Counted from the stretch's first letter, positions 4,480-58,727 are shown. The stretch is DNA of 64,000 bases from a virus (IMGVR_UViG_3300005535_000017:82331-146330); one strand, 5' to 3'. Numbers and translations are program-made. The notes: generated by a model not told the origin, from the letters alone.

Positions 4480-6528
4480 ATGAGCGACCTCGGTCTCGCT
4501 GGCGGCATTGCCAGATTCGATTCGTTTCACGGTCGCCAAGAGGGCGGCGGAGGCGCTCTTCGTTACCCGTCTCCGTTCTTCGACATCGGCCACACGTATC
4601 TGCCCACCAGCATCAAGCAGATGTTCCGGTGGTGCCGGTACTACTTCCTCACCAACCCGCTGATCAACGCCGTCACTTACAAGATGGCGGAGTACCCGAT
4701 CACGGACATCATCGTCGACGAGGAAGACTCTGAGCAGCGGGCGAAGTGGATCGAGATGATCGAGCACCAGTTCAAGGTGCGTACGGTCGAGATCGAAGCC
4801 GGCCTGGACTATTACTGCTACGGCATCGCATTCATTTCGCTGCACTTCCCATTCGACAAGTACCTCGTCTGCCCGCACTGCAAGACGGAGTACAAGGCCA
4901 AGGACAAGCGGACCGAGTTCAAGTTCCGCAACCTCAACTACTTCTTGTCCTGCAAGAAGTGCGAGATGGTCGTCCAGGCCAAGATCGTCGACAACTACAC
5001 GAAGAACTATCGGGACATCAAGGTCATCCGGTGGAACCCGGAGTACGTCACCGCTGAGCACAACGACATCACCGGTGAGACGGCCTACTTCTTCGACATC
5101 CCCATGGCGACGAGGAACGACATCCTCATGGGGAAGCGTCACGTAATCGAGTCGATCCCGGACGTCTACATCGAGTCGCTTCGCTCCAACAAGAGCCTGC
5201 GCCTCACCTCGGACAACATGTTCGTGCTGAAGCGACCAACCATCGCTCAGAAGGACATGGGCTGGGGCATGCCCCTCATCCTGCCTGTCCTCAAGGACAC
5301 CTTCTACCTGCAGATCTTGCGGAAGGGGCAGGAGGCGATTGCCCAGCAGCACATCGTTCCGCTCCGCATCCTCTTCCCGCAGGCTGGTGGCGCCGACGCG
5401 AGCCCTTACTCGACGACGGACCTCGGCAATTGGCGCAAGAGGATCGAGCAAGAGCTCGCCAAGCAGCGAGTCGACCCGAACTACATCCCCATCATGCCGC
5501 TACCGGTGGGCAACGAGACGATCGGAGGCGAGGGCAAGGCACTCATGCTTCACCAGGAGATGCGCGCCTGGTCGGAGCAGATCGTCGCCGGCATGCACGT
5601 TCCCATCGAATTCGTCTTCGGCGGCCTGCAGTACTCTGGCTCCAACGTCTCGATGCGCATGCTCGAGAACCAGTTCCTCGGCTACCGCACCAACCTCCTC
5701 ATCATGGTCCGCGACTTCATTCTCGGGAAGATCGCCGACTACATGGAGTGGAACCGCCCGAAGCTGCACTTCAAGCGCTTCAAGATGGCGGACGATCTGC
5801 AGCGTCTCCAGCTCACCTTCCAGATGAACCAGGCGCAGAAGGTCTCGGACACCACGCTCCTCGACGAGGCCGATCTGGACATCGTTCAGGAAGAGAAGCA
5901 CAAGAGCGCCGAGATGGCGAAGCAGATGGACAACCAGCGCAAGCAGATGATGGCCTCCGCCGAGCTCCAAGGCGAGACGCTCCTTGTCCAGACGCGCTAC
6001 CAGATCCAGGCCCAGAAGCTCATGCAGGCCGCTGGAATGCCTCCGCCAGACCAAGGCGGTGGTGCCCAGAACCAACAGCTTGGCGACGCCATGAAGCAGT
6101 TCGCCGAGGGCCAGCAATTGGGAGGCCCCGGCGGGCCTGGTGGCGGTGGCGACATGCAGCCCAAGGAAGGTGACGACGCCGCCCCGGGCTTCCCAGAGGG
6201 TGTGAAGGCCTACCCGGAGAAGGGCGGGACCATGCCGAACGAGGGCATCCCGATGGAGATGCAGTCGCCGCTCACCCAGGCGGCTGGCCAAGGTGCTCTA
6301 TTCAGTCCGCTCTACCTCGCTCGTCGTGCGGCTACGCACTTCGAGAAGATGGATGAGATGACGAAGAACATCGAGCTCATCAAGATGAAGGGCAAGAACC
6401 CGCAACTCTACGGGCTCACCGTTCAGCTCCTCCAAGACGCGAAGGGCTCTCAGACTGATCCGCTTGACCCCGGTCAGTCGCCCATGCCAGACATCAAGCC
6501 GCCTCGTCGCAAGAACGCTCTCATCTGA
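4480..6528 (+). CDS. putative portal protein (682 aa)
   Basis: Size, acidic composition and Q/G/P-rich C-terminal tail (QMMASAELQGETLLVQTRYQIQAQKLMQAAGMPPPDQGGGAQNQQ) resemble podo/myovirus portal crown regions. Start TAAATG coupled to upstream gene. Assignment is by resemblance only. Confidence 0.4.
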   Translation: MSDLGLAGGIARFDSFHGRQEGGGGALRYPSPFFDIGHTYLPTSIKQMFRWCRYYFLTNPLINAVTYKMAEYPITDIIVDEEDSEQRAKWIEMIEHQFKVRTVEIEAGLDYYCYGIAFISLHFPFDKYLVCPHCKTEYKAKDKRTEFKFRNLNYFLSCKKCEMVVQAKIVDNYTKNYRDIKVIRWNPEYVTAEHNDITGETAYFFDIPMATRNDILMGKRHVIESIPDVYIESLRSNKSLRLTSDNMFVLKRPTIAQKDMGWGMPLILPVLKDTFYLQILRKGQEAIAQQHIVPLRILFPQAGGADASPYSTTDLGNWRKRIEQELAKQRVDPNYIPIMPLPVGNETIGGEGKALMLHQEMRAWSEQIVAGMHVPIEFVFGGLQYSGSNVSMRMLENQFLGYRTNLLIMVRDFILGKIADYMEWNRPKLHFKRFKMADDLQRLQLTFQMNQAQKVSDTTLLDEADLDIVQEEKHKSAEMAKQMDNQRKQMMASAELQGETLLVQTRYQIQAQKLMQAAGMPPPDQGGGAQNQQLGDAMKQFAEGQQLGGPGGPGGGGDMQPKEGDDAAPGFPEGVKAYPEKGGTMPNEGIPMEMQSPLTQAAGQGALFSPLYLARRAATHFEKMDEMTKNIELIKMKGKNPQLYGLTVQLLQDAKGSQTDPLDPGQSPMPDIKPPRRKNALI

Positions 6529-6601: not shown

Positions 6602-9337
6602 ATGCAGACGGCAGCAGAGGACAAGAAGGTGGTGCGCCGAAACGCATCACCGAAGAGGATCCGATTCCAGCGGGTCTTCACCACCGAGGGCGTTCATCCG
6701 TTCAACACCGTCGAGTGGGTCAGGAAAGATGCAGTAATCTACGGCAGCAAGGGGGACGTGAAGTTCCGTCAAGACGGTGTCGAAGTCCCCGGGTTCTGGA
6801 ACGACACCACAGTCAACATCGTCGCTGAGAAGTACTTCCGCACCATCAATGGCGTGAAGGAAGTCTCCGCGAAGCAGATGTTCGATCGCGTCGCCTATTG
6901 GATGGCGCGTCAGGCGATCGACCAAGGGATCTTCGAGCCGGGGCATCTTCACACCTACGGCGCCCCTCCGTCGCCGCCCGATACGATGATGTCCGTCGAC
7001 GGCCAGGTGTTCTACGAGGAGCTTCTCTTCATGCTCCTTCATGGCATGTTCGCCTTCAACTCTCCGGTCTGGTTCAATGTCGGCGCGGTGGAAGTTCCGC
7101 AGTGCTCGGCCTGCTTCATCCAGCAGGTCACCGACGACATGGGCGACATCATGGACCTGGCCAAGAAGGAGGCCATGCTCTTCAAGGGCGGCTCGGGCAC
7201 GGGCGGTAACCTCTCGCCCATCCGCGGCAGCATGGAGAAGCTGTCGAACGGTGGCACGGCATCTGGCCCGGTCTCGTTCATGAAGGGCTTCGACGCCTTC
7301 GCCGGCGCCATGAAGTCTGGTGGTGGTACTCGACGTGCCGCCAAGATGGTCGTTCTCAACGTTGACCACCCGGACATCGAGGAGTTCATCACCTGCAAGT
7401 CGAACGCGGAGCAGGTGGCTCACGATCTCTACTCGACGGGGAAGTACACCGCCGAGTTCAACGTTCCGGGCAATGTCTACGAGTACGTTGGCTTCCAGAA
7501 CGCCAACAACTCGGTTCGTGTGACCGATGAGTTCATGAAGCTCGTCGAGAGCGACGGTGAGTTCTCGACGAAGTTCGTGAGCACGGGCAAGCCGCACAAG
7601 AAGTACAAGGCCCGTCATCTTTGGAAGGAGATCGCCAAGGCCGCCTGGATGTGCGGCGATCCGGGTCTGCAGTTCGACACGACCACGAACAACTGGCACA
7701 CCAGCCCTGCTTCGGGCCGCATCAACGCCTCGAATCCGTGCTCGGAGTATCTCTACCTCGACAACACGGCCTGCAATCTCGGATCACTGAACCTGCGCAA
7801 GTTCGTCAAGCTCGACAACACCTTCGACATCGAAGGCTTCGAGCACGCCTGCTCGATCGCCATCACCGCGATGGAGGCGGTCGTCGACGCCAGTTCCTAC
7901 CCGTCGCCGGTCATCACGGAGAACAGCCACAGGTACCGTACACTGGGGCTCGGCTACACGAATCTGGGCGATCTTCTTACCGTGTGGGGTCTTCCGTACG
8001 ACTCCAATGACGGTCGGAGTGTCGCCGGCGGCATCACTGCCATCATGGGTGGCGCAGCCCAGAGGCAGTCTGCTCTGCTTGCCGAAGTCCGCGGTCCGTT
8101 CGAGGCGTTCGAGGCCAACCGCGAGCCGATGCTCAACGTGGTCAAGATGCACCTCAATGCGGCCAAACGGATTCCGACGCCGATGGCGAAGCAGTATCAC
8201 GCCATCATCGATCGGGCGCCCGAAGTCTGGACGGAGGCGCTGCAGGCCGGAAAGAAGTTCGGCTACCGCAACGGCCAGGTCACAGTGCTCGCCCCGACTG
8301 GAACCATCAGCTTCCTCATGTGCGCCGATACTACCGGCGTCGAGCCCAACACGGCTATCGTCCGGTACAAGAAGCTTGTCGGTGGTGGCATGGAGCGGCT
8401 GGCGACTCCCAGTGTCGAGCTCGCTCTCAAAAACCTCGGGTACTCGCCGGAAGTCATCGACGGGATCCTCGAGTACGTCGCTGAGAACGAGAAGCTTCAG
8501 GGCGCGCCGGAGTTCGACTACGAGAAGCACGGTGGCGTCTTCCCGGAAGCTATCGGACCGAACGCCCTGCGTCCAGAAGCTCACATCCTCATGATGGCTG
8601 CGGTCCAGCCCTTCCTCTCGGGCGGCATCTCGAAGACCGTCAACATGCCAGAGAACTGCACGGTGGAGGACATCGAGAAGATCTACATGCTGTCCTGGAA
8701 GTCTGGTCTGAAGTGCGTGGCCATCTACCGGGACAAGTGCAAGCTCTCTCAGCCCATCTCCACCGAGAACAACACGCTCGAGGGCCGAGTCAAGTCGCTG
8801 GCGTGGGGTGAACGCCGTCGCCTACCGGACGAGCGCGACGCCAAGACGGCGAAAGTCAGCATCGGCGGCACGGAGGTGTACATCACTCCGGGCTTCTTCG
8901 GGGATGGCTCTCTGGGCGAGATCTTCGTCCGCGTCTCGAAGCAGGGCTCCACGCTGAACGGCATCATGGATGCGTGGGCGACCGCCTTCAGCATCGGCCT
9001 CCAGCACGGCGTTCCGCTGGAGACGTTCATCGAGAAGTTCAGCGACCAGGAGTTCGAACCCAAGGGCTGGACGAGTCACCCGATCATCCGCCGCGCTCGG
9101 TCCATCCCGGACTTCCTGGCGCAGTGGCTCGCTCTCAACTTCGCACCAAATGCGCAGCATCTTCTCCGACTGCGTGAGGCGCCGGCTGACGTCAAGCTGC
9201 TCACGCCGAAGGAAGAGGAGGCGAAGGCAGAGAAGGCGCCGTCTGGTCCTCCCTGCACTCGCTGCGGCAGTCTCACGAAGCGGGCAGGCTCGTGCCACCT
9301 CTGCCCGAACTGCGGTACCTCGACCGGCTGCGGATAG
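6602..9337 (+). CDS. nrdJ: ribonucleotide reductase, class II (adenosylcobalamin-dependent), monomeric type
   Basis: 911 aa. Active-site region NPCSEYLYLDNTACNLGSLNL matches the class II RNR consensus (NPCGE...ACNLGS.NL). C-terminal CTRCGSL...CHLCPNCG zinc-ribbon is typical of NrdJ C-termini. RBS GGAGG before ATG. Confidence 0.85.
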   Translation: MQTAAEDKKVVRRNASPKRIRFQRVFTTEGVHPFNTVEWVRKDAVIYGSKGDVKFRQDGVEVPGFWNDTTVNIVAEKYFRTINGVKEVSAKQMFDRVAYWMARQAIDQGIFEPGHLHTYGAPPSPPDTMMSVDGQVFYEELLFMLLHGMFAFNSPVWFNVGAVEVPQCSACFIQQVTDDMGDIMDLAKKEAMLFKGGSGTGGNLSPIRGSMEKLSNGGTASGPVSFMKGFDAFAGAMKSGGGTRRAAKMVVLNVDHPDIEEFITCKSNAEQVAHDLYSTGKYTAEFNVPGNVYEYVGFQNANNSVRVTDEFMKLVESDGEFSTKFVSTGKPHKKYKARHLWKEIAKAAWMCGDPGLQFDTTTNNWHTSPASGRINASNPCSEYLYLDNTACNLGSLNLRKFVKLDNTFDIEGFEHACSIAITAMEAVVDASSYPSPVITENSHRYRTLGLGYTNLGDLLTVWGLPYDSNDGRSVAGGITAIMGGAAQRQSALLAEVRGPFEAFEANREPMLNVVKMHLNAAKRIPTPMAKQYHAIIDRAPEVWTEALQAGKKFGYRNGQVTVLAPTGTISFLMCADTTGVEPNTAIVRYKKLVGGGMERLATPSVELALKNLGYSPEVIDGILEYVAENEKLQGAPEFDYEKHGGVFPEAIGPNALRPEAHILMMAAVQPFLSGGISKTVNMPENCTVEDIEKIYMLSWKSGLKCVAIYRDKCKLSQPISTENNTLEGRVKSLAWGERRRLPDERDAKTAKVSIGGTEVYITPGFFGDGSLGEIFVRVSKQGSTLNGIMDAWATAFSIGLQHGVPLETFIEKFSDQEFEPKGWTSHPIIRRARSIPDFLAQWLALNFAPNAQHLLRLREAPADVKLLTPKEEEAKAEKAPSGPPCTRCGSLTKRAGSCHLCPNCGTSTGCG

Positions 9338-9340
9338 CTA

Positions 9341-9386
9341 AAAAACAAAGGCGGGAAGGAATGCGCAACCTTCCCGCCTTTTCTTT
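9341..9386. terminator. bidirectional rho-independent terminator
   Basis: Perfect 12-bp stem aaggcgggaagg / ccttcccgcctt with 9-nt loop. A-run on the left (aaaaa) and T-run on the right (ttttcttt). Lies between convergent nrdJ (+) and the minus-strand Cys-rich genes. Confidence 0.75.
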
Positions 9387-9395
9387 AGCTTGCTC

Positions 9396-9845
9396 CTACG
9401 CTGCGCTCTCTTCGAGTATCGCATCCACCATCGCGTCGGCCACCTCTCCGCAGTCAGGGCAGACTGGCATTGCCCCACTTCTGCACTTGAGGTTCGAGCA
9501 CTCGTACTCTGCAGGCGGGTCGTCGGGCCGCATCTTATGTTTCGCGCACGCCGCACACAGGTACTGGAGCTCTTCCGCAGCCTCTGATAGTGCGATCTGC
9601 TTCAGGTCGTCGATCTCATCACGTCGAACCTCCAGGAGCACTTCGTTCCTGATGACGTCTCTGAGTTCCTGGTTCTTATAGACCCACGATGGAAGGCATG
9701 AAAGGTGGATCGTCTCCGGCTTTTCCATGTCGGAGCTGTGGTACATCTGACCTGACTTTTGACCCATCTTGGATGTTCCTGTCGACCCCTGAAAGGTTGG
9801 CTGGTCGATGTAGATGGGGAATCTGCAGTAGTCGCAAAGCATCAA
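9396..9845 (-). CDS. hypothetical Cys-rich protein (149 aa)
   Basis: Multiple CxxC pairs (CDYC, CAAC, CPDC). Coupled to the upstream gene (overlap 9842-9845). Confidence 0.5.
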   Translation of the reverse strand: MMLCDYCRFPIYIDQPTFQGSTGTSKMGQKSGQMYHSSDMEKPETIHLSCLPSWVYKNQELRDVIRNEVLLEVRRDEIDDLKQIALSEAAEELQYLCAACAKHKMRPDDPPAEYECSNLKCRSGAMPVCPDCGEVADAMVDAILEESAA

Positions 9846-10228
9846 CCGCCCTCCAGCGTGATGTCACCGAGTACGAGTTGGAGGTGGCTCGCTGGGCGAT
9901 CCTCCTCATCTCGACGGCAGGCAGGGTTTTGACAGTATCCGTCGGTGTAGTACCCAGGAAGGCGTAGATGCCGACCCACCCCTTTGGATCGGCTCTTCAG
10001 CCTTGCGACGCAGCTCGTACAACACCACCACACTGTTCCTGCAGGGTGGTACGAGAGCTCGTGCTGCATGAGACTGCAGGTGTCGCAGTCGTACGCTCTG
10101 GTGCAGTTCCCGCGAACATGATCATTCCCGAGAACGTTGAAGCGGGGTGATCCGTCGGCGGTGAATGTGCCTCCGTTCGCCCTCCACAGCAACGGACAGA
10201 AAGCCTGCGGCACTCCATCGCCATCCAT
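9842..10228 (-). CDS. hypothetical Cys-rich protein (128 aa)
   Basis: Cys cluster CDTC...WWCCTSC...C. Transcribed divergently from the RNAP gene. Confidence 0.5.
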   Translation of the reverse strand: MDGDGVPQAFCPLLWRANGGTFTADGSPRFNVLGNDHVRGNCTRAYDCDTCSLMQHELSYHPAGTVWWCCTSCVARLKSRSKGVGRHLRLPGYYTDGYCQNPACRRDEEDRPASHLQLVLGDITLEGG

Positions 10229-10319
10229 GAGTCACCCCATGCCATACAACAGCCAAAGCATCCACTGCACGCGGATCAGAAAGAACAGACAGAATGCGAG
10301 GCGGACGGCGGTGAGCATG

Positions 10320-10445
10320 TCACTCGTCGCCTTCCGGTGTGATTACCCCCGAGATTAGGTCGTCGACAGCCTCCTCGTAATCGTTGTTCTCGTCCTCCGG
10401 TTGGTTCGAGTCGTTGTCACCTGGTTCGAAACTCTCTCGGCCCAT
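10320..10445 (-). CDS. possible small acidic protein (41 aa)
   Basis: Minus-strand ATG (rc of 10443-10445) preceded by AGAGGGAAG. Product MGRESFEPGDNDSNQPEDENNDYEEAVDDLISGVITPEGDE. Not in ORF track (<60 aa). Confidence 0.2.
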   Translation of the reverse strand: MGRESFEPGDNDSNQPEDENNDYEEAVDDLISGVITPEGDE

Positions 10446-10513
10446 GGCTTCCCTCTCTGCGAAAATAAAGCCTGCCTACGAAACTCTTATCTCCGGCAAT
10501 CTCTAGGTTTTAT

Positions 10514-13500
10514 TTGACGTCGGATCGTCTTCTGCCTACGCTGGAGGCACTTGGTCGGCCCGGAGATTGCCGTCAGGCAGAGGGCTGCAAGGAGATTATC
10601 GTGGCCGGTACCCCAGCAGAGACCTGGAAGTCCCTCCAAGAGCGTGTCGAGTCAGCAGTGAAGAGCTACTTCCCCTTCGAAGGAAGAGCGAAGAAGTTGG
10701 TTCTTCACAATCTCTCCTTCGATGATAGTGGCGCACCGAGAGATGACATCCGCTCTCAGGAGCAAGCGAAGGATCAGAAGAAGACCTGGGGCGCGAACGT
10801 CTTCGCCGACGTGAGCCTGATCGACAAAGCCACGGGACATGAGCTCGATCGAACCAAGATCAAGGTCATGACTCTCCCCAAGCCCACCAACCGCTACAGC
10901 TACATCGTCGACGGATCCGAGTGGCAGGTGGATAGCCTCTGGCGCCTGCGTTCGGGCGTCTACGCCCACATCAAGCAGAACGGCGAAATGGAGACCGAGT
11001 TCAACCTCGCCAAGCCGTTCGCGGGTAAGCCTCGTATCAAGATCCCGTTCGATCCAGAGTCTCGCAAGTTTCAGTTCCAGTGGGGCACCTATCACCCTCC
11101 GCTCTACTCCGTTCTCAAGGTTCTCGGCGTTCAAGACGAGGATATGAAGAAGGCGTGGGGCGAGGACATCTACAAGGCCAATGTCCCGAAGCACCCGGAG
11201 AAGGACATTGAAGAGCTCTACGCGAAGATCACCAAGAACTCGAAGCAGCAACTGCAAGGCCTAACCTACGACCAGAAGGCCTCTGCCGTTGTTGCCGAGT
11301 TCCACAAGACGGGTTTGTTGCCAGAGATGACGAAGCTCGTCTTCGGCAAGCCGTTCGACCACGTCAACGGGGAAGCTTTGCTGCTGGGCTCGCAGCGGAT
11401 TCTTGGAGTGACCAAGGGCGATATCCCACAGGACGATCGCAACTCACTCGTCTTCAAGACACTGCACGGAACGGACGACTTCCTGCACGAGCAGCTCACC
11501 AAGTCCAAGATGAAGCGGACCCTTGCTGGAAAAGTCGGCAACAACATCGACCGGCAGGATAAGGTTCGCGACATCATCTCCGGCGACCTCTTCAATCGCC
11601 CCATCAAGGAGTTCTTCACGAGCTCCATGCTCTCGAAGAACCCGGAGCAGGTGAACCCGCTCGAGATGATCTCGAATCATCGAGCGACGACGATCATGGC
11701 CGAGGAGGGCGGTATCAAGAAGGAGCAGTCGGTTACGCCCGACATGAAGCTCATCAACCCCTCGCACTTCGGCTATCTCGATCCGATCCACACGCCGGAG
11801 TCGGAGCGCACCGGTATCACTCTGCACTTGCCCATCGGCGTCAAGAAGAGGGGCAACGACCCCATCATGCAGGTCTATGATCTGAAGGCGAAGCAGTTCG
11901 CCAAGGTCACGCCGGCCGAGCTACACCGAGAGAACGTGCTGCTGCCAGATCAGGTCGTCATCAGGGACGGGCGCCCGCATCCGATTGCGGACCTCGTGAA
12001 GATGAAGGACCCGATAACACACGAGATGCTGGAGAAGCCTTTCTCCGAGGCTCGCTACCTCGTTGTTCAGCCCTCGCAGCTCTACGATGAGGCGACCAAC
12101 CTCATCCCGTTCCTGCAGAACAACCAGGGCAACCGCACGATGACCGCGTCCCGCCAGGGCACGCAGGCCGTCTCTCTGCACAATCGCGAGCAGCCTCTCG
12201 TTCAGGTTTTGGCAGGCGGGTCTCAGACCTGGGAGAAGCTCACCGGTCTCGACTGGTCCCACAATGCTCATCACGACGGCAAGGTGGTGGAGATCAAGAC
12301 CAGCAAGGAGAACGGCCACGCTGAGGCTATCGTCATTCAGGACGCGGCCGGCAAGCGACACGAGGAGCAGATCTACAACCACTTCCCGCTCAACGACTCG
12401 AAGACCTTCATCCACTCGACGCCGCTTGTGAAGGTCGGCGATTCGGTGAAGAAGGGGCAGACCCTCGCCGACACCAACTTCACACGGCAGGGCTCTCTGT
12501 CCCTTGGAACGAACCTTCGCGTCGCGTATTTACCGTACAAGGGGTACAACTTCGAGGACGGCATCGTCATCTCCGACTCAGCAGCAAAGAAGCTGACGTC
12601 GGAGCACTTGCACCGTCGGACGCTCGAGACAGATCCCGAGAGGGACGAGATCTCGAAGTCGAGGTTCATCGCCTTCGCCAGCACGATGTCAAAGAAGCTG
12701 ACGAAGGACCAGATGTCCAAGATCGGGACGGACGGTCTGATTCGAGTCGGTCAGCGGGTCGAGCCGGGAGACATCCTCGTTGCAGCAGTGGGCAAGAAGG
12801 ACTACGCCGGCGAGACTGGTCGGTTGATGAGTCGTCTGTCGAAGAAGGCCTTCAATCTCCAAGACCGAAGCGTGGTCTGGGATTCCGACCACCCGGGTGA
12901 GGTGGTGAAGGTCGTCAAGCTCCCGAACAACAAGGGAGCCGTCGTTCACGTCAAGACGCTCGAGTCCGCCGAGGTCGGTGACAAGATCGTCGGCCGACAC
13001 GGCAACAAGGCCATCATCACCCGCATCCTGCCCGACCACGAGATGCCTCGCATCGGTGGCGCAGATGGCCAGCACGTCCAGGTCCTCATGAACCCATCCG
13101 GCGTCCCGACCCGCATCAACCTCGGTCAGATGCTCGAGACAGCCGCCTCGAAGGTCGCCGAGAAGACGGGCAAGCCCTATGTCGTCACCAACTTCGCCGG
13201 GCCGCACGTCGACTACACCAGCAAGGTGAAAGAAGACTTGGCGAAGAATGGCATCAGCGATCAAGAAACGCTCTTCGATCCGACCAACGGCAAGAAGCTC
13301 GGAGACGTACTGACGGGCAATCAGTACATCTTCAAGCTCAAGCACCAGGTCGAGAAGAAGCTCGCCGTCCGAAGCGGAGGTCGACAGGGCGGTGGTTCCT
13401 ACACCGTCGACCACGCTCCCAAGGGCACAGGTGCGGAGCACCCCGGCCAGGGCCTGGGGCAGCTCGAGTTCTACGCTCTGCTCGCTCACGGAGCGCGCCA

Positions 13501-16500
13501 CAACCTTCGCGAGATGGCCACCTACAAGGCCGACCAGCACCTCGGGGACAATCTCGACGACATGAATCACACCGACTTCTGGGATCGCGTCCGCACGGGC
13601 CAGCCGCTGCCGGCTCCTCGCCCGACGTTCGCGTACAAGAAGTTCGAGAACCTGCTCACCGGCCTCGGCGTCAACATCCAGAAGCAAGGCAACGAGCTCC
13701 AGCTCATGCCGTTGACTGACAAGGGCGTGCTCGCTCTCTCGCACGGCGAGATCAAAGACGCTGGTCGCATGCTCCGTGGCAAAGATGCCAAGGAGCTGGA
13801 GAAGGGCCTCTTCGACCCGAAGATCACCGGCGGCCTGCCGGATGACAAGGGCAAGGGACTCTTCTGGTCTCACATCAAGATGGCCGAGCCGGTTCCCAAT
13901 CCGGTGTTCGTCGGCTCGAGCAAGTCGCAGCTCGGCCCGGCCGTCATCCTATCCGGTCTTCGGTATGAAGACTTCGAAGCGGTTGCGAAGGGCAAGAAGG
14001 CCCTGCCCAACGGCGAGACAGGTGGTATCGCAATCAACAATCTTCTCAAGAAGATCGACGTCAAGGCCGAGCTGAAGAAGACGCTCGCTGAGCTCCCGAA
14101 GCTGAAGAAGGACGCGCTCAACAAGGCCAACAAGAAGGCGCGCTACCTCATCGCTCTCGACAAGCTCAACATGAAGCCGCACGAAGCGTACATGATGAAC
14201 TACCTGCCGGTGCTGCCGCCGGCGTTCCGGCCCATTGTTCCGATGCCGGATGGTTCACTGCGCTACGACGACATCAACCAGTACTACCACGCCATCGGTC
14301 TCCTCAACGATCGTCTGAAGAACCCGGTCAAGGAGCTCGGCGGTGCCTCGGAGAGGAACGTCCGCGAGCAGCTCTACGACGCCATGAGGGCCTACGCTGG
14401 CCTCGGTGGGCGTCCGGTCTACGAGTCGAACCGCCCGATGAAGGGCATCCTCGACGTCGTTGCTGGCGATCAGCCGAAGCAAGGCTACTTCCAGAAGCGG
14501 CTCATGAAGCGCCGGCAGGAGCTCTCCATGCGCTCCACCATCATCCCGGAGCCGGCCATGCACCTCGACTACGTGGGCCTACCGAAGGAAGCGGCGATGG
14601 AGCTCTACAAGCCTTTCGTCGTGCGAGAGCTGGGTCAGGTCGGCCTCAACCCGGTCAATGCGCTGAAGGCGGTGAAGGAGAATAGGGACATCGCCTGGAA
14701 GGCGCTCGAGAAGGCGATGGACAAGCGCCCGGTCCTCCTCAAGCGAGACCCGGCTCTGCACAAGTTCTCGATCATGGCCTTCAAGCCGAAGATGGTCGAG
14801 GGCAAGGCCATCCAGATCCACCCGCTGGTCACCGCTGGCTACAACGCTGACTTCGACGGCGACACCATGTCCGTCTTCGTCCCGCTCACGGACGAGGCAG
14901 TCAAGGAGTCCCACAAGATGTTCCCGTCGAACAACCTCTTCAGCTCGACCAGCGGCGACATCATGTACCAGCCGACGCAGGAGTCACTGCTCGGTCTTCA
15001 CCTTCTGACGAAGTGGGGCAAGGAGACTGGTAAGACATTTCCCAACTTCCTCGAAGCACAGAAGGCGAAGGACAGAGGTGCTCTTGGCATGAACGACGTC
15101 TTCACCATCGGTGGCAAGAAGACGACGCTCGGCCGCATGACAATCAATAGCTACTTCCCAGACGGCTTCAAGGCCAACGAGGAACTTCTGCACGACTCGA
15201 AGTTCACGCTCAAGAAGAAGAACGTGAAGCAGCTCCTGGGTAACCTGGCCCGCCAGGACCCGAAGAGCTTCGCCCTCACCGTCGACAAGCTGAAGGACTT
15301 GGGTAACAACTACTCCTACGAAGCGGGGTTCTCCTTCGGTCTGAAGGACCTTGATGTTCAGAAGGGGCTGCGTGATCACATCCTCCACCCCTACGATGTC
15401 GAGGCGGGAAAGATCAGGTCCAGCAAGCTCTCGAAGGAAGAGAAGGACGCCAAGCTGGTGAAGATCTACTCGATGGCGACCGATGAGCTCGAGAAGGAGC
15501 TCCTGCCGCACTTCGAGAAGACGGACAACAAGATCTACACGATGGTGTACTCCGGTGCTCGCGGCTCGACGCCGCAGTTCCGCCAGATCACCATGGCTCC
15601 GATGCTCATGAAGGACGGCGCTGGCGGCACCATCCCCACTCCGGTCAAGAAGAGCTATGCGGAGGGTCTCGACGTCGGTGACTACTGGACGTCTCTCCAC
15701 GGCGCCCGCATGGGTACCCTGCAGAAGGTCGAAGGTACCTCTGAGCCTGGAGCTCTCACCAAAGACGTTGCTAACGTCATGATGCCGACGCTGATCGTCT
15801 CGAACGATTGCGGTACCAAGAACGGCATCACGATGAATGTGGCCGACGTGGAGATCCAGGATCGAGTTCTGGCCAAGGAAGCGAAAGTGGGTAAGCACAC
15901 GCTCGCTCCTGGCACGATCATCACTCCAGAGGTGACGGCAACTCTGCAGAAGCACGGCGTCGACAAGATCATCGTGCGGTCTCCTCTGAAGTGCGCCCAC
16001 GGGCAGGGCCTGTGCGCCAAGTGCTACGGACTCAGTGAGAACGGACACTTCCACGAAGTCGGCACCAACATCGGCGTGATCGCCGGACACGCTCTTGGTG
16101 AGCCAGCGACGCAGCTCGCCATGGACTCGTTCCACACCGGTGGCGTCGCGGCGTCTCGAGGCGCCGGTGCGGTCGACAAGTTCACTCGACTGAACCAGCT
16201 TCTCAATGTCCCCAAGATCCTGTCGCACTCTGCTACCCTATCCACCATGGAAGGGACCGTGTCTCGGATCGAGCACGACAAGGCGACGAACGGTCACTAC
16301 ATCCACATCGGCGGGGAACGGCACTACGTCCCGGCCGTCAACAAGGTCACCGTCGCTGTGGGCGACAAAGTCTTCCCGGGCCACGCGCTGTCGGACGGCC
16401 CCATCAATCCCCGCGAGCTCTTGCCGCTGACCGACATCCACAATGTGCAGAACTACGTCACGAACAGCCTACACAACGATGTGTACAAGGACGAGCACGT

Positions 16501-16870
16501 CAAGCGCCGCAACATCGAGACAGTAGTGCGCTCTCTGACCAACCTCGCTCGCGTCGAGGATCCGGGCGATTCGGCACACCTGCACGGAGACCTCGTCCTT
16601 CGCACTGTGGTGGATGAGCACAACCGCAGCCTGAAGCCCGATGAGAAGCCGATCATCGCAAAGCCAGTTATTCGCTCGGCGGAGCAGGTCGCCCTCGACC
16701 AGCACGAAGACTGGATGGCGCGTCTCAACTTCGAGCGTTTGCGGCAGACCATTCTCGAGGGTGCGTCTCGAGGCTGGAAGAGCAACATCCACGGGCCCAA
16801 CCCCGTTCCCGCCTATGTCTTCGGTGCGGAGTTCGGCAAGGGCACCAAAGAGAATCCGCACCACTACTAA
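10514..16870 (+). CDS. rpoBC: multisubunit DNA-directed RNA polymerase, fused beta / beta-prime subunits in one polypeptide
   Basis: 2118-aa ORF. Beta motifs GDKIVGRHGNKAIITRILP (GRHGNKG) and GQLEFYALLAHGA..LREM (GEMEVWALEAYGAA). Beta C-terminus KKFENLLTGLGVNIQ runs directly into beta-prime. Beta-prime motifs NYLPVLPPAFRPIVP, KRDPALHKFSIMAFKP, NADFDGDTMSVFVPL (catalytic Asp triad) and a bridge-helix-like LHGARMGTLQK. The likely true start is the GTG at 10601, preceded by AAGGAG at 10589-10594; the track start at 10514 has no RBS. Confidence 0.9.
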   Translation: MTSDRLLPTLEALGRPGDCRQAEGCKEIIVAGTPAETWKSLQERVESAVKSYFPFEGRAKKLVLHNLSFDDSGAPRDDIRSQEQAKDQKKTWGANVFADVSLIDKATGHELDRTKIKVMTLPKPTNRYSYIVDGSEWQVDSLWRLRSGVYAHIKQNGEMETEFNLAKPFAGKPRIKIPFDPESRKFQFQWGTYHPPLYSVLKVLGVQDEDMKKAWGEDIYKANVPKHPEKDIEELYAKITKNSKQQLQGLTYDQKASAVVAEFHKTGLLPEMTKLVFGKPFDHVNGEALLLGSQRILGVTKGDIPQDDRNSLVFKTLHGTDDFLHEQLTKSKMKRTLAGKVGNNIDRQDKVRDIISGDLFNRPIKEFFTSSMLSKNPEQVNPLEMISNHRATTIMAEEGGIKKEQSVTPDMKLINPSHFGYLDPIHTPESERTGITLHLPIGVKKRGNDPIMQVYDLKAKQFAKVTPAELHRENVLLPDQVVIRDGRPHPIADLVKMKDPITHEMLEKPFSEARYLVVQPSQLYDEATNLIPFLQNNQGNRTMTASRQGTQAVSLHNREQPLVQVLAGGSQTWEKLTGLDWSHNAHHDGKVVEIKTSKENGHAEAIVIQDAAGKRHEEQIYNHFPLNDSKTFIHSTPLVKVGDSVKKGQTLADTNFTRQGSLSLGTNLRVAYLPYKGYNFEDGIVISDSAAKKLTSEHLHRRTLETDPERDEISKSRFIAFASTMSKKLTKDQMSKIGTDGLIRVGQRVEPGDILVAAVGKKDYAGETGRLMSRLSKKAFNLQDRSVVWDSDHPGEVVKVVKLPNNKGAVVHVKTLESAEVGDKIVGRHGNKAIITRILPDHEMPRIGGADGQHVQVLMNPSGVPTRINLGQMLETAASKVAEKTGKPYVVTNFAGPHVDYTSKVKEDLAKNGISDQETLFDPTNGKKLGDVLTGNQYIFKLKHQVEKKLAVRSGGRQGGGSYTVDHAPKGTGAEHPGQGLGQLEFYALLAHGARHNLREMATYKADQHLGDNLDDMNHTDFWDRVRTGQPLPAPRPTFAYKKFENLLTGLGVNIQKQGNELQLMPLTDKGVLALSHGEIKDAGRMLRGKDAKELEKGLFDPKITGGLPDDKGKGLFWSHIKMAEPVPNPVFVGSSKSQLGPAVILSGLRYEDFEAVAKGKKALPNGETGGIAINNLLKKIDVKAELKKTLAELPKLKKDALNKANKKARYLIALDKLNMKPHEAYMMNYLPVLPPAFRPIVPMPDGSLRYDDINQYYHAIGLLNDRLKNPVKELGGASERNVREQLYDAMRAYAGLGGRPVYESNRPMKGILDVVAGDQPKQGYFQKRLMKRRQELSMRSTIIPEPAMHLDYVGLPKEAAMELYKPFVVRELGQVGLNPVNALKAVKENRDIAWKALEKAMDKRPVLLKRDPALHKFSIMAFKPKMVEGKAIQIHPLVTAGYNADFDGDTMSVFVPLTDEAVKESHKMFPSNNLFSSTSGDIMYQPTQESLLGLHLLTKWGKETGKTFPNFLEAQKAKDRGALGMNDVFTIGGKKTTLGRMTINSYFPDGFKANEELLHDSKFTLKKKNVKQLLGNLARQDPKSFALTVDKLKDLGNNYSYEAGFSFGLKDLDVQKGLRDHILHPYDVEAGKIRSSKLSKEEKDAKLVKIYSMATDELEKELLPHFEKTDNKIYTMVYSGARGSTPQFRQITMAPMLMKDGAGGTIPTPVKKSYAEGLDVGDYWTSLHGARMGTLQKVEGTSEPGALTKDVANVMMPTLIVSNDCGTKNGITMNVADVEIQDRVLAKEAKVGKHTLAPGTIITPEVTATLQKHGVDKIIVRSPLKCAHGQGLCAKCYGLSENGHFHEVGTNIGVIAGHALGEPATQLAMDSFHTGGVAASRGAGAVDKFTRLNQLLNVPKILSHSATLSTMEGTVSRIEHDKATNGHYIHIGGERHYVPAVNKVTVAVGDKVFPGHALSDGPINPRELLPLTDIHNVQNYVTNSLHNDVYKDEHVKRRNIETVVRSLTNLARVEDPGDSAHLHGDLVLRTVVDEHNRSLKPDEKPIIAKPVIRSAEQVALDQHEDWMARLNFERLRQTILEGASRGWKSNIHGPNPVPAYVFGAEFGKGTKENPHHY
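10515..10543 (+). promoter_or_regulatory. possible sigma70-like promoter upstream of the RNAP gene
   Basis: TTGACG (10515-10520), 17-nt spacer, TACGCT (10538-10543), in an AT-richer divergent intergenic region. Weak -10. Speculative. Confidence 0.2.
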
Positions 16871-16872
16871 TC

Positions 16873-18021
16873 ATGAGCAGACGCGCTGTAGACGCCTTCC
16901 CCAAGAAGCGCTCGTCCTCCACGGCGACGACGGATCTTCGCGACGTTTCCGTTTATCGGGGCCGTGTCGTCAACGTCAACATTCGGGACTACACGGTGGA
17001 CACCCGAATGGAGGCTGCGCCCTATACGGTGAAGTTCGACATCCCCTTCATCTCTCCCTACGTGAATCAGAACCAGGGAGAGGGCATCAACTGGATGCCG
17101 GAAGTCGGGTCGGTTTGCTGGGTCTGTGAGCCTTCAGAAGACGGACGAGAGAGCTTCGTTCTTGGCTGGTCTGTGGTGGATGAGGGCGGCAGCTATCGTG
17201 GTGGGCGCTCTCTTCTCAATCCTGGAGACATCGAGCTCAAGACAAGAGACCTGAACTTCGTCACTCTCCGTCGAGGAGGGATCGTTCAGATCGGCTCTAC
17301 TCCCATCTGCCAGCGCATCTTCCTACCCATTCGAAACGTGATGCAGGACTTCGCCGAGAACTACGAGCTCCACACCCCGGCTGGTGACCTCACATGGCAG
17401 GTGCAGAGGAAGGATGAAGATTCCGACGGGCACCAGAAGTGTCTGTACCAAATCGCCGCCAAAGAGTTCGCGGACGACTCCAATGACAAGACGGTCGCCC
17501 TCCTCAAAATCGGTTCCCATGGCGACGGTGACAAGACTATCCTGACGCTGCAAACCCGCGATAAAGGTGGAGGAGACGTCAAGATAGGGCTCACCTTCGA
17601 CAAGGACGGCAACGTCAACTGGACCATGGAAAAGAACTACTCCTTGGTGCTCAACTCAGGTGACCTGACGCTCCAAGCGAAGCAGGGCAAAGTCTCGGTC
17701 TCGTCGAACAAGGCGATGTCGCTCGATAGCCAAGACTCGATGGATCTCCACAGCACAAAGGCGATGGGAATCAAGACGGACGACGCGATGACGATCCAGG
17801 CCATGCAGAAGCTGGTGCTCAAGGGCACAGCGGGGATCGATATCGACTTGGCGCAATGGCCCGTCTTGCGCAACTCTCCTGACTTCATCCAGTTCATCGC
17901 TGCAGTCGCTGCTCAGCTTGGAACTCCAGTGACGACGCCCTTCGGCACTCTCGTCGCTGCGAACCCTGGCATCCTCTCGATGATTCCCAAAAACCACCAG
18001 AACCCGAAGGTGAAGGTCTAA
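16873..18021 (+). CDS. baseplate central spike/hub protein (gpV / gp5-like OB-fold plus beta-helix)
   Basis: 382 aa. N-terminal PYVNQNQGEGINWMPEVGSVCWVCEPSEDGRESFVLGW resembles the P2 gpV OB-fold (VGEQVLILAVGGELDTAFVLPG). C-terminal repetitive beta-strand segment rich in short T/S/D/K units. Start 2 nt after the RNAP stop, no own SD. Confidence 0.5.
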   Translation: MSRRAVDAFPKKRSSSTATTDLRDVSVYRGRVVNVNIRDYTVDTRMEAAPYTVKFDIPFISPYVNQNQGEGINWMPEVGSVCWVCEPSEDGRESFVLGWSVVDEGGSYRGGRSLLNPGDIELKTRDLNFVTLRRGGIVQIGSTPICQRIFLPIRNVMQDFAENYELHTPAGDLTWQVQRKDEDSDGHQKCLYQIAAKEFADDSNDKTVALLKIGSHGDGDKTILTLQTRDKGGGDVKIGLTFDKDGNVNWTMEKNYSLVLNSGDLTLQAKQGKVSVSSNKAMSLDSQDSMDLHSTKAMGIKTDDAMTIQAMQKLVLKGTAGIDIDLAQWPVLRNSPDFIQFIAAVAAQLGTPVTTPFGTLVAANPGILSMIPKNHQNPKVKV

Positions 18022-20166: not shown

Positions 20167-21000
20167 GTGACGACACCTCTCTTCACCGCCTTCTCCGACG
20201 AGTTCCAGCAGATCCAGCGACTGAAGCTCGCGAGTCCGCTTGGTGTCGCAAAGTCGTGGTTGAAGGGGCAGTACGCACAGCTCGGCAACGCCGCGGCCCA
20301 GGCATCCCAAGGACACCAGTCCTTCAGCCCGATGCTTGGTCAGCCCGCTCCACCGATCGTCGGAACGATCACCAACTTCCTCGCCAACAAGCTGCCGACC
20401 CCAAAGAAGCCACCGGGGCCGGTCATCGAGGGAGCCAAGCGCCTTCTTAGCTCTAAGCCGGCGAAGACGATCATCCCCCTCATCGATCAAACCAGCGAGT
20501 TCTTGAAGCTCGCACAGGTCGAGCCCTACCAACAGAAGACACAATACTCATGCTCAGCGGCGTGTCTGAAGGCCGTGCTCGAGCACTGGGGAGCCGATCG
20601 CTTTGCCGAGCACGAGATCATGTACGCCATCGGCGTGCGCGATCGCGGCGGTGCGGAGGTGGACGAGATCACCCGTGGAGCTCAGAAGCTCGGCTTCGAC
20701 GCGTACGACAAGTGCTTCTCGTCCCTCGATGAGGCGAAGGCAATCACCGATCAGGGCATCCCGATCATTGCCGACTTCCAAAGCTTCAACAACCCTGGCA
20801 AGGGGCACTACGTCGTCATCACTCAGATCGACGACAATGTGGTCCATCTGATGGACCCCAACACCGATGGCAACCAGCGTGTTATTACACGCGCTGAGTG
20901 TGAGCAGCGGTGGTGGGACAAGACCATGGCCCCGCCACACAACCTGATGGTGAAGTGGGGAGTGGTGGTCACCCCAAGGAGTGGCGATGGGACTCGGTGA
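20167..21000 (+). CDS. putative papain-like cysteine peptidase (C39-like domain)
   Basis: 277 aa. C-terminal half has Cys in QYSCSAACLKAVLEHWG and His in GKGHYVVITQID, then N/D, arranged as in C39 / transglutaminase-like cysteine peptidases. Motif-level only. Confidence 0.4.
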   Translation: MTTPLFTAFSDEFQQIQRLKLASPLGVAKSWLKGQYAQLGNAAAQASQGHQSFSPMLGQPAPPIVGTITNFLANKLPTPKKPPGPVIEGAKRLLSSKPAKTIIPLIDQTSEFLKLAQVEPYQQKTQYSCSAACLKAVLEHWGADRFAEHEIMYAIGVRDRGGAEVDEITRGAQKLGFDAYDKCFSSLDEAKAITDQGIPIIADFQSFNNPGKGHYVVITQIDDNVVHLMDPNTDGNQRVITRAECEQRWWDKTMAPPHNLMVKWGVVVTPRSGDGTR

Positions 21001-21463
21001 CTTCATCAAGACTAACCCACGTGCCTTCCTCACCGGCGTTGGGGCAGTTGCTGGCGGTGCTGGCGGAGCCGTCCGTGGATTGACGATGAAGTCCTGGCAT
21101 GACCAGTGGCGAGATGTAACGCACCACTATGATGCCGAGCAGAGAAAGAAAAACGCGTGGAAGATGGGGCTCGCTGGCGGAATCGCTGGCGGTCTCGTCG
21201 GGTACACAACTCCCGTTCATACAGTGCCGGCCTCAGCACTCCCCAAAGCAGTCCCGTCGGCCTTCAAAGGCGTAAAGTCGCAGAAGGACGTGAAGAAGCT
21301 CGTCCGCGAGTTCTCGCTCAAGCACCATCCAGATCGCGGCGGTGATGCCAAGAAGTATCGAGAGTTCATCGACGCCTACAACGCGTTCAAGAAGCATCCC
21401 AAGTTCCCGAAGACGGCCATGGTGGCCTTTGTGGACGAGATGCTCCACATCCTCAATCGATGA
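20981..21463 (+). CDS. membrane-anchored J-domain (DnaJ-like) protein
   Basis: 160 aa. N-terminal Gly-zipper hydrophobic segments (GVGAVAGGAGGAV; LAGGIAGGLVGY). C-terminal J-domain signature LKHHPDRGGDAKKYREFIDAYNAF with the HPD tripeptide. Confidence 0.65.
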   Translation: MAMGLGDFIKTNPRAFLTGVGAVAGGAGGAVRGLTMKSWHDQWRDVTHHYDAEQRKKNAWKMGLAGGIAGGLVGYTTPVHTVPASALPKAVPSAFKGVKSQKDVKKLVREFSLKHHPDRGGDAKKYREFIDAYNAFKKHPKFPKTAMVAFVDEMLHILNR

Positions 21464-22917
21464 GTCGTCTCGCTACCAACCTCGGGAAGATCGCGGGCGT
21501 GGCAGGGCTACAGCCCCATCAGCAGCGTGTTGTCGATCGTATCCAGCAGCCTGACCAGCCGGGCTTGGTGGTGGCGCACGGTCTCGGTTCTGGAAAGACG
21601 AGAACTGCGATCGAGGCTCAGAAGGCTCTCAAGATGCCGTCGGACGTCATCGTTCCGGCAGCACTCCAGGCGAATTACCGCAAGGAGCAGAAGAAGTGGT
21701 TGGGCGGAGCCAAGCAGAAGGCTCATGTCCAGTCGATGCAGAACATCACGAGGAAGCGTCAGGCTCCGACGCAGCCCCTGATGATCGTCGACGAGGCTCA
21801 CCGTGCTCGTGAGCCTCAGACGCAGACCTACAAGACGCTGGCGAAGAACGAGGCCGAGAAGCGCCTGCTTCTGACCGGCAGTCCATTCTACAACCGCCCG
21901 TCTGACATTGCGCCACTCGTAGACCTCGCCTCTGGAGCGCCGTTGCTTCCGACGGACCCGGAGCGGTTCAATCAGAGGTTCATTCGTCAGAAGAAGATTA
22001 GCCCTGGCATCATCAATCGACTCCGCGGCCTCAAGCCGGGTGTCGTTGAAGAGCTGAACCCCAAGCGCCAGGAAGAGCTTCAAGGCATCTTCGACAAGTG
22101 GGTCGACTATCACCCGTCTGCGAAGGAAGACTTCCCCGAGGTCAATCGTGAGGACGTCAAGGTGCCGATGGACCCGAAGCAGCTCGAGGTCTACGACACC
22201 ATCCTGAAGAAGGCGCCACCTTGGGTGTCGGCCAAGATCCGCTCTCGTCTGCCTCCCAGCAAGCGGGAATCCCAGCAGCTCAACGCCTTCTTGGGGGCCA
22301 GTCGGCAAATCGCCAACTCCACTGCTCCCTTTCAGGAGGACGTGAAGAAGGTCTATGAGCCCAAGCTGGACGAAGCCTTCTCTCGGTTGCAGCAAGAGCT
22401 TGCCGCGAACGAGAGGGCAAAGGCTGTCGTCTACTCCAACTACCTCGGCGCAGGCATCAATCCCTACGCCCAGAGGCTTCAAGAAGCTGGCATCCCCTAC
22501 GGCGAGTTCACCGGTGAGATGCCGAAGTCGAAGAGGGACGAGCTCGTCAGGCAGTACAACGAGAACAAAATTCGCGCCCTCTTGCTCTCTTCGGCCGGTG
22601 GAGAAGGTCTCGATCTGCAGGGCACTCGACTCATCCAGATGCTAGAGCCTCACTGGAATGATGAGAAGTTGAAGCAGGTTGAGGGTCGTGGCATCCGTTA
22701 CAAGAGCCACGCGATGCTTCCCCCAGAAGAGCGGAATGTGAAGGTCCAGCGGTTCTTGGCGACTCGCCGTCCAACCGGCGTTCTCGAGAAGCTGCGCCTC
22801 AAGAAGCCAGGTGGATCGGTCGACGAGTACCTTGCCGCCAGGGCCCAGGAAAAGGAAAACTTGATCCAACAATTCCGGGCCCTACTTGAACAACAGCAGC
22901 AGCCTGCAGCACAATAG
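21460..22917 (+). CDS. SNF2-like superfamily-2 helicase/ATPase
   Basis: 485 aa. Walker A GLGSGKT, DEAH box MIVDEAHRARE, motif III LLTGSP, helicase-C motifs SAGGEGLDLQG and QVEGRGIRYKS. Confidence 0.75.
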   Translation: MSRLATNLGKIAGVAGLQPHQQRVVDRIQQPDQPGLVVAHGLGSGKTRTAIEAQKALKMPSDVIVPAALQANYRKEQKKWLGGAKQKAHVQSMQNITRKRQAPTQPLMIVDEAHRAREPQTQTYKTLAKNEAEKRLLLTGSPFYNRPSDIAPLVDLASGAPLLPTDPERFNQRFIRQKKISPGIINRLRGLKPGVVEELNPKRQEELQGIFDKWVDYHPSAKEDFPEVNREDVKVPMDPKQLEVYDTILKKAPPWVSAKIRSRLPPSKRESQQLNAFLGASRQIANSTAPFQEDVKKVYEPKLDEAFSRLQQELAANERAKAVVYSNYLGAGINPYAQRLQEAGIPYGEFTGEMPKSKRDELVRQYNENKIRALLLSSAGGEGLDLQGTRLIQMLEPHWNDEKLKQVEGRGIRYKSHAMLPPEERNVKVQRFLATRRPTGVLEKLRLKKPGGSVDEYLAARAQEKENLIQQFRALLEQQQQPAAQ

Positions 22918-26105: not shown

Positions 26106-26540
26106 GTGAACAAGATCCGCTACCCACGAAGAACTAAGACTTGTCCACGGTGCAAGAAAGACAAGCCGGCTACGGCTAAGTTCTTCTGTCCAGACAAGCG
26201 AGGCTATATTTGCTGGTGCAGGCGCTGCTCGGCCGACCGAGCGACTGAGTGGGGAAAGACCAATCATCGTCGACAAACGGATACTCGATTCAAGAGACGC
26301 TACGGCCTCTCCATAGAAGAGTTTGATGCACTAGTCCTACAGCAGAACGGCAAATGCGCCATCTGCGGAGAGGCCCCAAAGGCCGTGAAGAGCAAACTTC
26401 AGGGATTCAACGTGGACCACGACCACAAGACGAAGAAAGTCCGGGGGCTGCTTTGCTTCGGGTGCAACACTGGAATCGGCTGCCTGAGGGATAACCCTTC
26501 CCGGCTGCGGTCTGCTGCCGACTACCTCGAGAGGATGTAA
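26106..26540 (+). CDS. recombination endonuclease VII-like nuclease (His-Me finger) with N-terminal zinc ribbon
   Basis: 144 aa. NGKCAICGEAP...FNVDHDHKTKKVRGLLCFGCNTGIG aligns with T4 endonuclease VII (GKCLICQ...HLDHDHELNG..GKVRGLLCNLCN). N-terminal CPRC...CWCRRC. Immediately upstream of the terminase gene. Confidence 0.8.
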   Translation: MNKIRYPRRTKTCPRCKKDKPATAKFFCPDKRGYICWCRRCSADRATEWGKTNHRRQTDTRFKRRYGLSIEEFDALVLQQNGKCAICGEAPKAVKSKLQGFNVDHDHKTKKVRGLLCFGCNTGIGCLRDNPSRLRSAADYLERM

Positions 26541-28796: not shown

Positions 28797-28867
28797 CTGT
28801 CGTCTCCATGTGAGGGGTACGAACGAAAAAACGTTCGTTCACGTCACACCTCTTATCCCGAGACGTT

Positions 28868-54736: not shown

Positions 54737-54769
54737 CCTCCACTCCCTCTTATCTCACGATGATGGTCA

Positions 54770-58601: not shown

Positions 58602-58727
58602 TCATCGCTCCTTGATAAGAAACGGATCTGGGATCACCGCGCTTATCCCGGAGGAGTTGTAGCGTTTTCCGTCGGTGCTGTCAGCTAAGAAAATGCCGGA
58701 GAAGATCCGGCGAGGAGTACTGGGGAA

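Follow-up and report, generated by a model that had tools for sequence, protein, structure and literature searches.

The 64,000-nt stretch IMGVR_UViG_3300005535_000017:82331-146330 (hereafter the window) carries a single gene that encodes the β and β′ subunits of a bacterial-type RNA polymerase (RNAP), fused head to tail. Translation of the window sequence shows that 10514..16870 on the plus strand is one open reading frame (ORF) with zero internal stops; the true start of the gene is most likely GTG 10601, with TTG 10514 probably lying upstream of it. We place the start at GTG 10601 because the identical protein found in the protein search (P0001) is 2,089 amino acids (aa) long, because the alignment of 39 family members starts at window residue V30, and because an AAGGAG sequence is located 7 nt 5′ of this codon. 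Below, residue positions are given in 2,089-aa numbering, L-numbered loci are genome stretches of relatives, except for L088 and L090, which adjoin or overlap the window, and P-numbered entries are database protein homologues. The gene has the following features.

10601..16870, plus strand: fused β-β′ RNA polymerase gene, 2,089 aa plus stop, start codon GTG
10601..13705, plus strand: β module, aa 1 to ~1035, with Rpb2_3, Rpb2_6 and Rpb2_7
11654..11692, plus strand: equivalent of rifampicin cluster I, with substitutions D516E, H526N, R529A and S531T
12992..13009, plus strand: GRHGNK, the β active-site lysine motif, aa 798-803
aa 953-965: β motif GQLEFYALLAHGA
13628..13834, plus strand: fusion junction, from the β C-terminal helix and strand (FAYKKFENLLTGLGVNIQ) to the β′ N-terminal segment up to GLFDPKITGG
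13706..16867, plus strand: β′ module, aa ~1036-2089, with Rpb1_1 to Rpb1_5
13835..13867, plus strand: 11-residue loop LPDDKGKGLFW, replacing the ~32-residue four-cysteine zinc ribbon (bacterial β′ 66-97)
aa 1203-1207: β′ motif PVLPP
14843..14863, plus strand: NADFDGD, the catalytic aspartate triad, aa 1415-1421
15698..15715, plus strand: bridge-helix core HGARMG, aa 1700-1705, aligning to HGARKG of Salmonella β′
15803..16024, plus strand: second β′ zinc site, with C1737 in NDCGT and C1798, C1805 and C1808 in CAHGQGLCAKC
16097..16144, plus strand: trigger-loop segment GEPATQLAMDSFHTGG, from the alignment

The Pfam domains follow one another in the order Rpb2_3, Rpb2_6 (E 2e-61), Rpb2_7 and then Rpb1_1 to Rpb1_5, all within this single ORF and not in separately terminated ones. 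Together with the lack of internal stops and the conserved junction, this domain order bears out the preliminary description of the locus, which had proposed a one-ORF head-to-tail β-β′ fusion. The motifs listed there (GRHGNK, GQLEFYALLAHGA, PVLPP, NADFDGD and GARMG) are all present. Across the 39 family members the G, R, N and K of GRHGNK are invariant, with the H and the second G at least 90% conserved; the aspartate triad is likewise invariant, and so is each of the four second-site zinc cysteines, which correspond to E. coli C814, C888, C895 and C898. The protein aligns well to the bacterial enzyme over the bridge helix, trigger loop and clamp helices. Judged by its sequence, the active site (β lysine motif, NADFDGD triad, bridge helix, trigger loop and second zinc site) is intact. 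Since the four substitutions in rifampicin cluster I sit at positions of known role, they suggest that the fused enzyme is naturally insensitive to rifampicin.

No extra linker separates the two modules, just as had been described: FAYKKFENLLTGLGVNIQ passes straight to the β′ N-terminus. The residues right after the β C-terminal strand align to bacterial β′ 28-65, and the sequence from WSHIKMAEP onward aligns to bacterial β′ 98-127, both HMMER alignments being weak but consistent. The loop LPDDKGKGLFW stands in place of the N-terminal zinc ribbon of β′, in agreement with its reported absence, and no cysteine is found in this region in any of the 39 aligned family members. In the predicted model, the ribbon region forms a loop between the junction hairpin and a conserved strand. 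The ribbon cysteines are similarly absent from two cultured relatives that we discuss below, Salmonella phage Arash and Vibrio phage D69, and from the basal locus L062; the CxC...CxxC ribbon pattern is retained in the unfused phage β′ proteins of RHph_TM30, L081, L083 and L086. Because all fused members checked lack the cysteines and the unfused ones checked keep them, fusion and ribbon loss appear to go together and probably have a single origin.

The phage protein is ~660 aa shorter than E. coli β (1,342 aa) plus Salmonella β′ (1,407 aa). The family profile aligns to four blocks of Salmonella β and two blocks of β′, and the enterobacterial segments left without alignment are β ~225-428, β ~933-1047 and β′ 950-1139 (the β numbering is that of E. 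coli, after subtracting the 38-residue N-terminal extension of the Salmonella annotation). We take these segments to be the lineage-specific insertions β SI1, β SI2 and β′ SI3 of E. coli RNAP. Also missing are the zinc ribbon, part of the β′ N-terminus and the last ~60 β′ residues. On this alignment, most of the shortfall is accounted for by enterobacterial lineage-specific insertions, which are absent from many bacteria too. AlphaFold, run on two overlapping halves of the fused protein, gave models with a predicted local distance difference test score (pLDDT) of 79.8 and 78.1 and a predicted template modelling score (pTM) of 0.70 and 0.73. The β half superposes on cyanobacterial and Thermus β at a template modelling score (TM) of 0.71-0.76, and the β′ half on Firmicute β′ at TM 0.77-0.78; according to these models, both halves fold like bacterial β and β′. 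The closest solved structures by sequence are bacterial β′ subunits (PDB, E 3e-127), with the identity to bacterial β and β′ being only ~25-30% and that to any bacterial or cultured-phage sequence in the phage collection only ~30%. A shortfall of about 600 aa had been noted earlier and is, if anything, slightly larger; the word 'minimised' attached to it goes too far, as the missing length is mostly enterobacterial insertions and the halves superpose on full-length bacterial β and β′.

The fused gene belongs to a large family. The protein search returned 388 homologues, and the best 120 clusters, drawn from JGI, ENA, NCBI and Logan assemblies with contigs of up to 220 kb, are 46-100% identical to the window protein and nearly all 2,080-2,130 aa long; the window's own protein is also present on ~210-kb contigs. 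In IMG/VR, at least 513 stretches were confirmed to match the fused polymerase. Among the best 80 IMG/VR loci, which span a GC content of 0.32-0.69, in about 50 an uninterrupted frame of at least 1,990 aa contains NADFDG; the others are cut by contig ends, broken by in-frame TGA only, split in the manner of phage Arash, or carry separate β′ and β genes. The junction sequence is conserved across the family alignment. A frameshift, an assembly artefact or bacterial contamination can be dismissed with near certainty: the same single ORF recurs in more than 120 clusters from independent assemblies and in IMG/VR, the junction is conserved, the identical protein lies on ~210-kb contigs and the flanking genes are those of a phage. 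The fusion is real, old and conserved over a large clade of 150-220-kb tailed phages. To call the compact fused form unusual, as had been done, is an overstatement: it is very common in metagenomes, as the cluster and IMG/VR counts attest, and is partly present in the cultured phages Arash and D69. A scan of 185,579 reference genomes found no close relatives, and a megablast search of window positions 1-25000 against cultured phages gave no match.

Two further observations concern the polymerase genes of relatives. The polymerase frames of L046 and L073 are broken only by in-frame TGA codons (three and two, respectively; GC 0.35-0.37), and that of L025 by a single one (GC 0.53), which suggests that these phages or their hosts read TGA as sense and, therefore, that these genes are full fusions as well. 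Secondly, 29 fetched homologues, in the range P0005-P0120, exceed 2,300 aa, the largest reaching 3,705 aa. Most of them contain one to three large insertions, and one has more; the inserts carry Pfam domains of inteins or homing endonucleases and recur at about three sites (profile positions ~438, 1540 and 1906). The window copy is free of insertions.

Fusions of β and β′ are known from bacteria: in the RpoBC proteins of Helicobacter, Campylobacter and Wolbachia the C-terminus of β is joined to the N-terminus of β′, the same head-to-tail arrangement in one polypeptide as in the window. These are, however, housekeeping enzymes of ~2,900 aa that work with α, ω and sigma, whereas the window protein has 2,089 aa, is at most ~30% identical to bacterial sequences, lacks the zinc ribbon and is encoded in a phage genome. 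YonO and gp66 of crAss-like phages, the latter packaged in the virion, also combine both double-psi β-barrels in one chain, but have little or no recognisable β or β′ homology outside the barrels; the window protein, in which all the Rpb2 and Rpb1 domains are recognised in order and the fold is bacterial from end to end, does not belong with them. The phiKZ/AR9-type enzymes are phage-encoded relatives of β and β′ as well, which act independently of the host core and of which one set is packaged in the virion (PMC7598289). Unlike the window protein, they consist of 4-5 polypeptides, with β and β′ each cut into two or three, and have diverged much further. The window's matches to PHROG families annotated as RNA polymerase β subunit are weak (E 1e-9 to 1e-21; the phage source of these families is unchecked) next to its match to bacterial β′ in the PDB (E 3e-127). 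With β and β′ in one ORF the window enzyme is not of the phiKZ type, and the contrast with those fragmented polymerases that had been drawn at the outset is justified.

The window has in common with the mReC group, tailed phages known mostly from metagenomes, that β and β′ can be aligned to cellular enzymes and keep NADFDGD (Weinheimer & Aylward 2020, PMC7481178). In contrast to the window, β and β′ are separate proteins of at least 800 aa each in every mReC entry examined, and some mReC contigs hold two RNAP sets (PMC7481178). Our mReC-like loci L081-L087 have the gene order β′ then β. In the separate-gene loci a β′ of 903-933 aa is followed by a β of ~1,020 aa, lengths that resemble one mReC class, and L081, L083 and L086, the mReC-like loci whose β′ were checked, keep the zinc-ribbon cysteines, unlike the fused family. 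The mReC capsid family PF07068 (gp23-like) gave no Pfam match to the window's capsid candidate (38027-39145). In a rough neighbour-joining tree of 310 β′ columns, which is only indicative and does not include the original mReC sequences, the fused clade is sister to the mReC-like loci and away from Salmonella, with a Rhizobium phage β′ further out. By sequence, the fused enzyme groups with phage-specific RNAP lineages and not with recent bacterial rpoBC.

The best cultured relatives are Salmonella phage Arash and Vibrio phages D69, D148 and D181, at ~30% identity. The Arash-type enzymes share with the window the β-to-β′ junction and the loss of the zinc ribbon, and these phages have a homologous terminase and portal. 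They differ in that β is fused to only the N-terminal half of β′ (~1,525 aa), while the C-terminal part of β′ (~610 aa) is a separate protein, with other genes sitting between the two pieces; in Arash these are Gp206 and Gp216. Arash, D69 and five IMG/VR loci are all interrupted at one and the same point of the profile (position 1503/1507). The split subclade, which includes Arash and Vibrio phage D69, comprises loci L001, L002, L058, L070, L076, L077 and L080, with 0.6-4.8 kb of other genes separating the pieces; in D148 and D181 a homing endonuclease is also found under the match. The Arash paper names the larger protein, Gp206, simply β subunit, and does not mention a fusion (PMC10585845).

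Around the polymerase gene, the window contains the following features.

4480..6528, plus strand: portal-protein homologue, 682 aa (phmmer E 3e-80 to Arash gp204 and 4e-83 to D69_0259)
6602-9337: ribonucleotide reductase, between the portal and polymerase genes
10321..10446, minus strand: very acidic 41-aa ORF (MGRESFEPGDNDSNQPEDENNDYEEAVDDLISGVITPEGDE), divergent from the polymerase gene and preceded by a GAGATAAG motif
16873..18021, plus strand: baseplate hub or central-spike-like gene, immediately downstream of the polymerase gene (DUF2345, E 6e-4; all matches weak)
20167-21000, plus strand: Peptidase_C39 protein, a few kb downstream of the polymerase gene
21460-22917, plus strand: SNF2-family helicase, a few kb downstream of the polymerase gene
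26540-28381: large terminase
38027-39145: capsid candidate, its only match being PHROG 2522 (E 6e-9)
853-860, 10486-10493, 28852-28859, 54749-54756, 58642-58649, 60109-60116 and 62980-62987, minus strand: copies of GRGATAAG

Homologues of terminase, capsid and portal proteins establish the source as a phage, as had been concluded from the sequence before. The 4480..6528 protein itself has no PHROG or Pfam match, and its orthologues in Arash, D69 and L005 match portal PHROGs. For the gene downstream of the polymerase, the L005 orthologue has a weak Phage_base_V match and baseplate PHROGs match at E 1e-5; PDB sequence searches gave nothing useful for either this gene or the portal candidate. The order portal, polymerase, hub-like gene is found in L005, and L004 has the orthologous set, the portal call being supported directly only in L005. 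In Arash and D69 the portal gene lies directly upstream of the polymerase gene.

The window also offers a candidate promoter. The sequence G(A/G)GATAAG occurs 7 times in the window versus 1.74 expected, and all seven copies are on the minus strand, intergenic and 12-70 nt upstream of leftward genes. The 20.6-kb locus L090 overlaps the right end of the window and reaches ~10 kb beyond it, into a dense array of ~25 small genes on the same strand; L090 has 15 copies versus 0.97 expected, all intergenic and on the coding strand. Four of these 15 are among the window's seven, giving 18 distinct copies in all. The motif is also found upstream of leftward genes in the relative L004, and by inspection it is unlike a sigma70 -10 element. 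Some copies stand, by eye, just after a terminator-like hairpin. GRGATAAG is a good candidate for the promoter of an early gene class. A k-mer search upstream of the rightward genes yielded only stop-codon context and no shared motif.

We next consider which other subunits the phage encodes. The inspected sequence, the 64-kb window plus 10 kb on each side, amounts to ~84 of the ~210 kb of the genome. None of the ~70 window ORFs scanned has a Pfam match to the Sigma70, α or ω families, and the precomputed Pfam annotation of the 10-kb flanks contains neither sigma, α or ω nor further RNA polymerase domains; a second polymerase is absent from the window as well. Arash, in contrast, encodes Gp10, a divergent sigma70-family protein (Sigma70_r3, E 9e-9), for which the window has no detectable homologue: a sigma profile built from homologues of Arash gp10 and extended with ORFs of L072 and L042 gave a best window match of E = 16. 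Clear sigma70-like ORFs lie a few kb from the fused polymerase gene in L072, L042 and L044. The earlier observation that no α, ω or sigma genes are nearby thus stands for the window and its flanks. The host-independent holoenzyme deduced from it does not follow, because only ~84 of ~210 kb were inspected and because relatives encode sigma70-family proteins.

These data bear on whether the fused chain might be only a core that needs α, ω or sigma of the host, forming a hybrid holoenzyme. The sigma-binding clamp-helix region of β′ aligns well to bacteria, the sigma70-family genes of some relatives suggest a sigma-dependent enzyme, and no phage α or ω was found in the window ORFs scanned, all of which would fit such a hybrid. 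We nevertheless consider it quite unlikely. Identity to bacterial β and β′ is low, the GC span of the clade's hosts (0.32-0.69) argues against conserved docking of host subunits, and the C-terminal tail of β′, which in bacteria contacts ω, is truncated. Furthermore, bacterial RNAP normally needs an α dimer to unite β and β′, and the fusion would remove this main assembly role of α. At the opposite extreme, the chain could be fully self-sufficient, carried in the virion without α, ω or sigma, refolding after ejection and itself recognising GRGATAAG as a single-element promoter in front of the early genes. This, too, we regard as unlikely; if true, no earlier single-chain enzyme would match bacterial RNAP so closely in alignment, one domain after the other, and the zinc ribbon would have been lost as an adaptation coupled to the fusion.

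Virion proteomics of Arash detected the polymerase protein Gp206 with the most spectra of all (3,516); the same preparation contained Gp216 and the sigma factor Gp10 (PMC10585845). A review of virion RNAPs points out that their subunits must cross the tail unfolded and then find each other (PMC7598289). We lean towards an early polymerase delivered with the virion, because of the conserved synteny, the Arash proteomics and the fact that a single chain would avoid reassembly after tail passage. Its main rival is a non-virion enzyme of the middle or late phase: host RNAP would read the early and the polymerase genes, whereupon the fused enzyme takes over, in the way of T7 RNAP or the non-virion RNAP of phiKZ. 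Read directly, a TTGACG-N17-TACGCT sequence upstream of the polymerase start is compatible with this scenario, although a consensus scan of 9300-10700 for sigma70 promoters and terminators found none. A metabolic gene, the ribonucleotide reductase, lies between portal and polymerase, and the Arash authors themselves consider carry-over of abundant enzymes possible; the two RNAP sets that mReC genomes often have make a division of labour plausible. Against this scenario, GRGATAAG in front of the early genes is, by inspection, unlike a sigma70 -10 element, the synteny of portal, polymerase and hub is kept in relatives, and there is no second polymerase in the 84 kb inspected. Taken together, a non-virion role seems to us somewhat unlikely.

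Several points weigh against virion delivery and against the wider role that we propose. The authors of the Arash study warn of carry-over, as ribonucleotide reductases, RNA ligases and a DNA helicase were also detected (PMC10585845). Arash itself is only ~30% identical, with an enzyme split into two proteins, and the role proposed for this phage is drawn from sequence, models and relatives. In the window, the ribonucleotide reductase gene as well as a 149-aa and a 41-aa leftward ORF come between portal and polymerase, and the putative baseplate assignment of 16873..18021 is built on weak matches. Nothing ties GRGATAAG to the fused polymerase rather than to the host enzyme or a modified form of it, and no sigma-like gene was found in the window or its 10-kb flanks; a second polymerase or α-like or sigma-like genes may be encoded in the other ~126 kb of the genome.

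With these points weighed, the explanation that we judge likely as a whole is that the fused protein is the catalytic core of a bacterial-type DNA-dependent RNA polymerase owned by the phage, probably delivered with the virion. The polymerase would be packaged in the virion, enter the cell with the DNA and transcribe the leftward small early genes bearing GRGATAAG. As a single chain it would transcribe phage genes independently of the host core enzyme, and with the subunits joined, the α-dimer scaffold would no longer be needed to unite β and β′. Promoter specificity may be supplied by a phage sigma70-like factor, as in the relatives.

Other genes of the region deserve brief mention. The 41-aa ORF at 10321..10446 was also called by gene callers in the database copies of the window contig, and in L004 and L005 the corresponding place is likewise taken by small leftward ORFs. 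Small acidic phage proteins are sometimes host polymerase inhibitors or DNA mimics; that the 41-aa ORF is one of these is speculation. The Peptidase_C39 gene is also present in L004, and for the nearby SNF2-family helicase we note that, according to Iyer et al., one SF2 helicase of phiKZ-type phages has a distribution that follows that of the RNAP genes. The window has no tRNA genes. Accessory genes lie on its minus strand, at the following positions.

53645-54007, minus strand
56969-57469, minus strand
57621-58601, minus strand
58728-59588, minus strand
61028-61474, minus strand

This unusual accessory set comprises a stand-alone response-regulator receiver domain, DUF7352, a MoxR-type AAA_5 ATPase, a collagen-repeat protein and a dCMP deaminase. 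A VWA protein and proteins with a ribosomal L7/L12 C-terminal domain, Endonuclease VII, HTH_17 and HTH_39 are present in the window too. To the left of the window, positions 1-10000 of L088 encode a leftward DnaG-like primase, a DnaB-like helicase, a uracil-DNA glycosylase-family protein and a ResIII helicase.

Phage RNAPs of the multisubunit type were already known, as were β-β′ fusions as such. What is new is the full fused form, which is found widely in metagenomes and in part in cultured phages, and of which the literature that we searched has no description. That search, whose coverage excludes most subscription journals, found no described bacterial-like fused phage β-β′ and surfaced only crAss-like gp66, YonO, mReC, reviews of jumbo phages and the Arash paper.

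The coupling of fusion and ribbon loss provides a testable hypothesis on the role of the zinc ribbon at the β/β′ interface and the RNA exit channel. A natural single chain would give simple access to how multisubunit polymerases assemble and fold and to what they need at the least, and the fused gene is a candidate single-gene transcription tool, probably insensitive to rifampicin. Finally, the fused polymerase may be used to recognise members of a large clade of ~200-kb phages, most of them uncultured.

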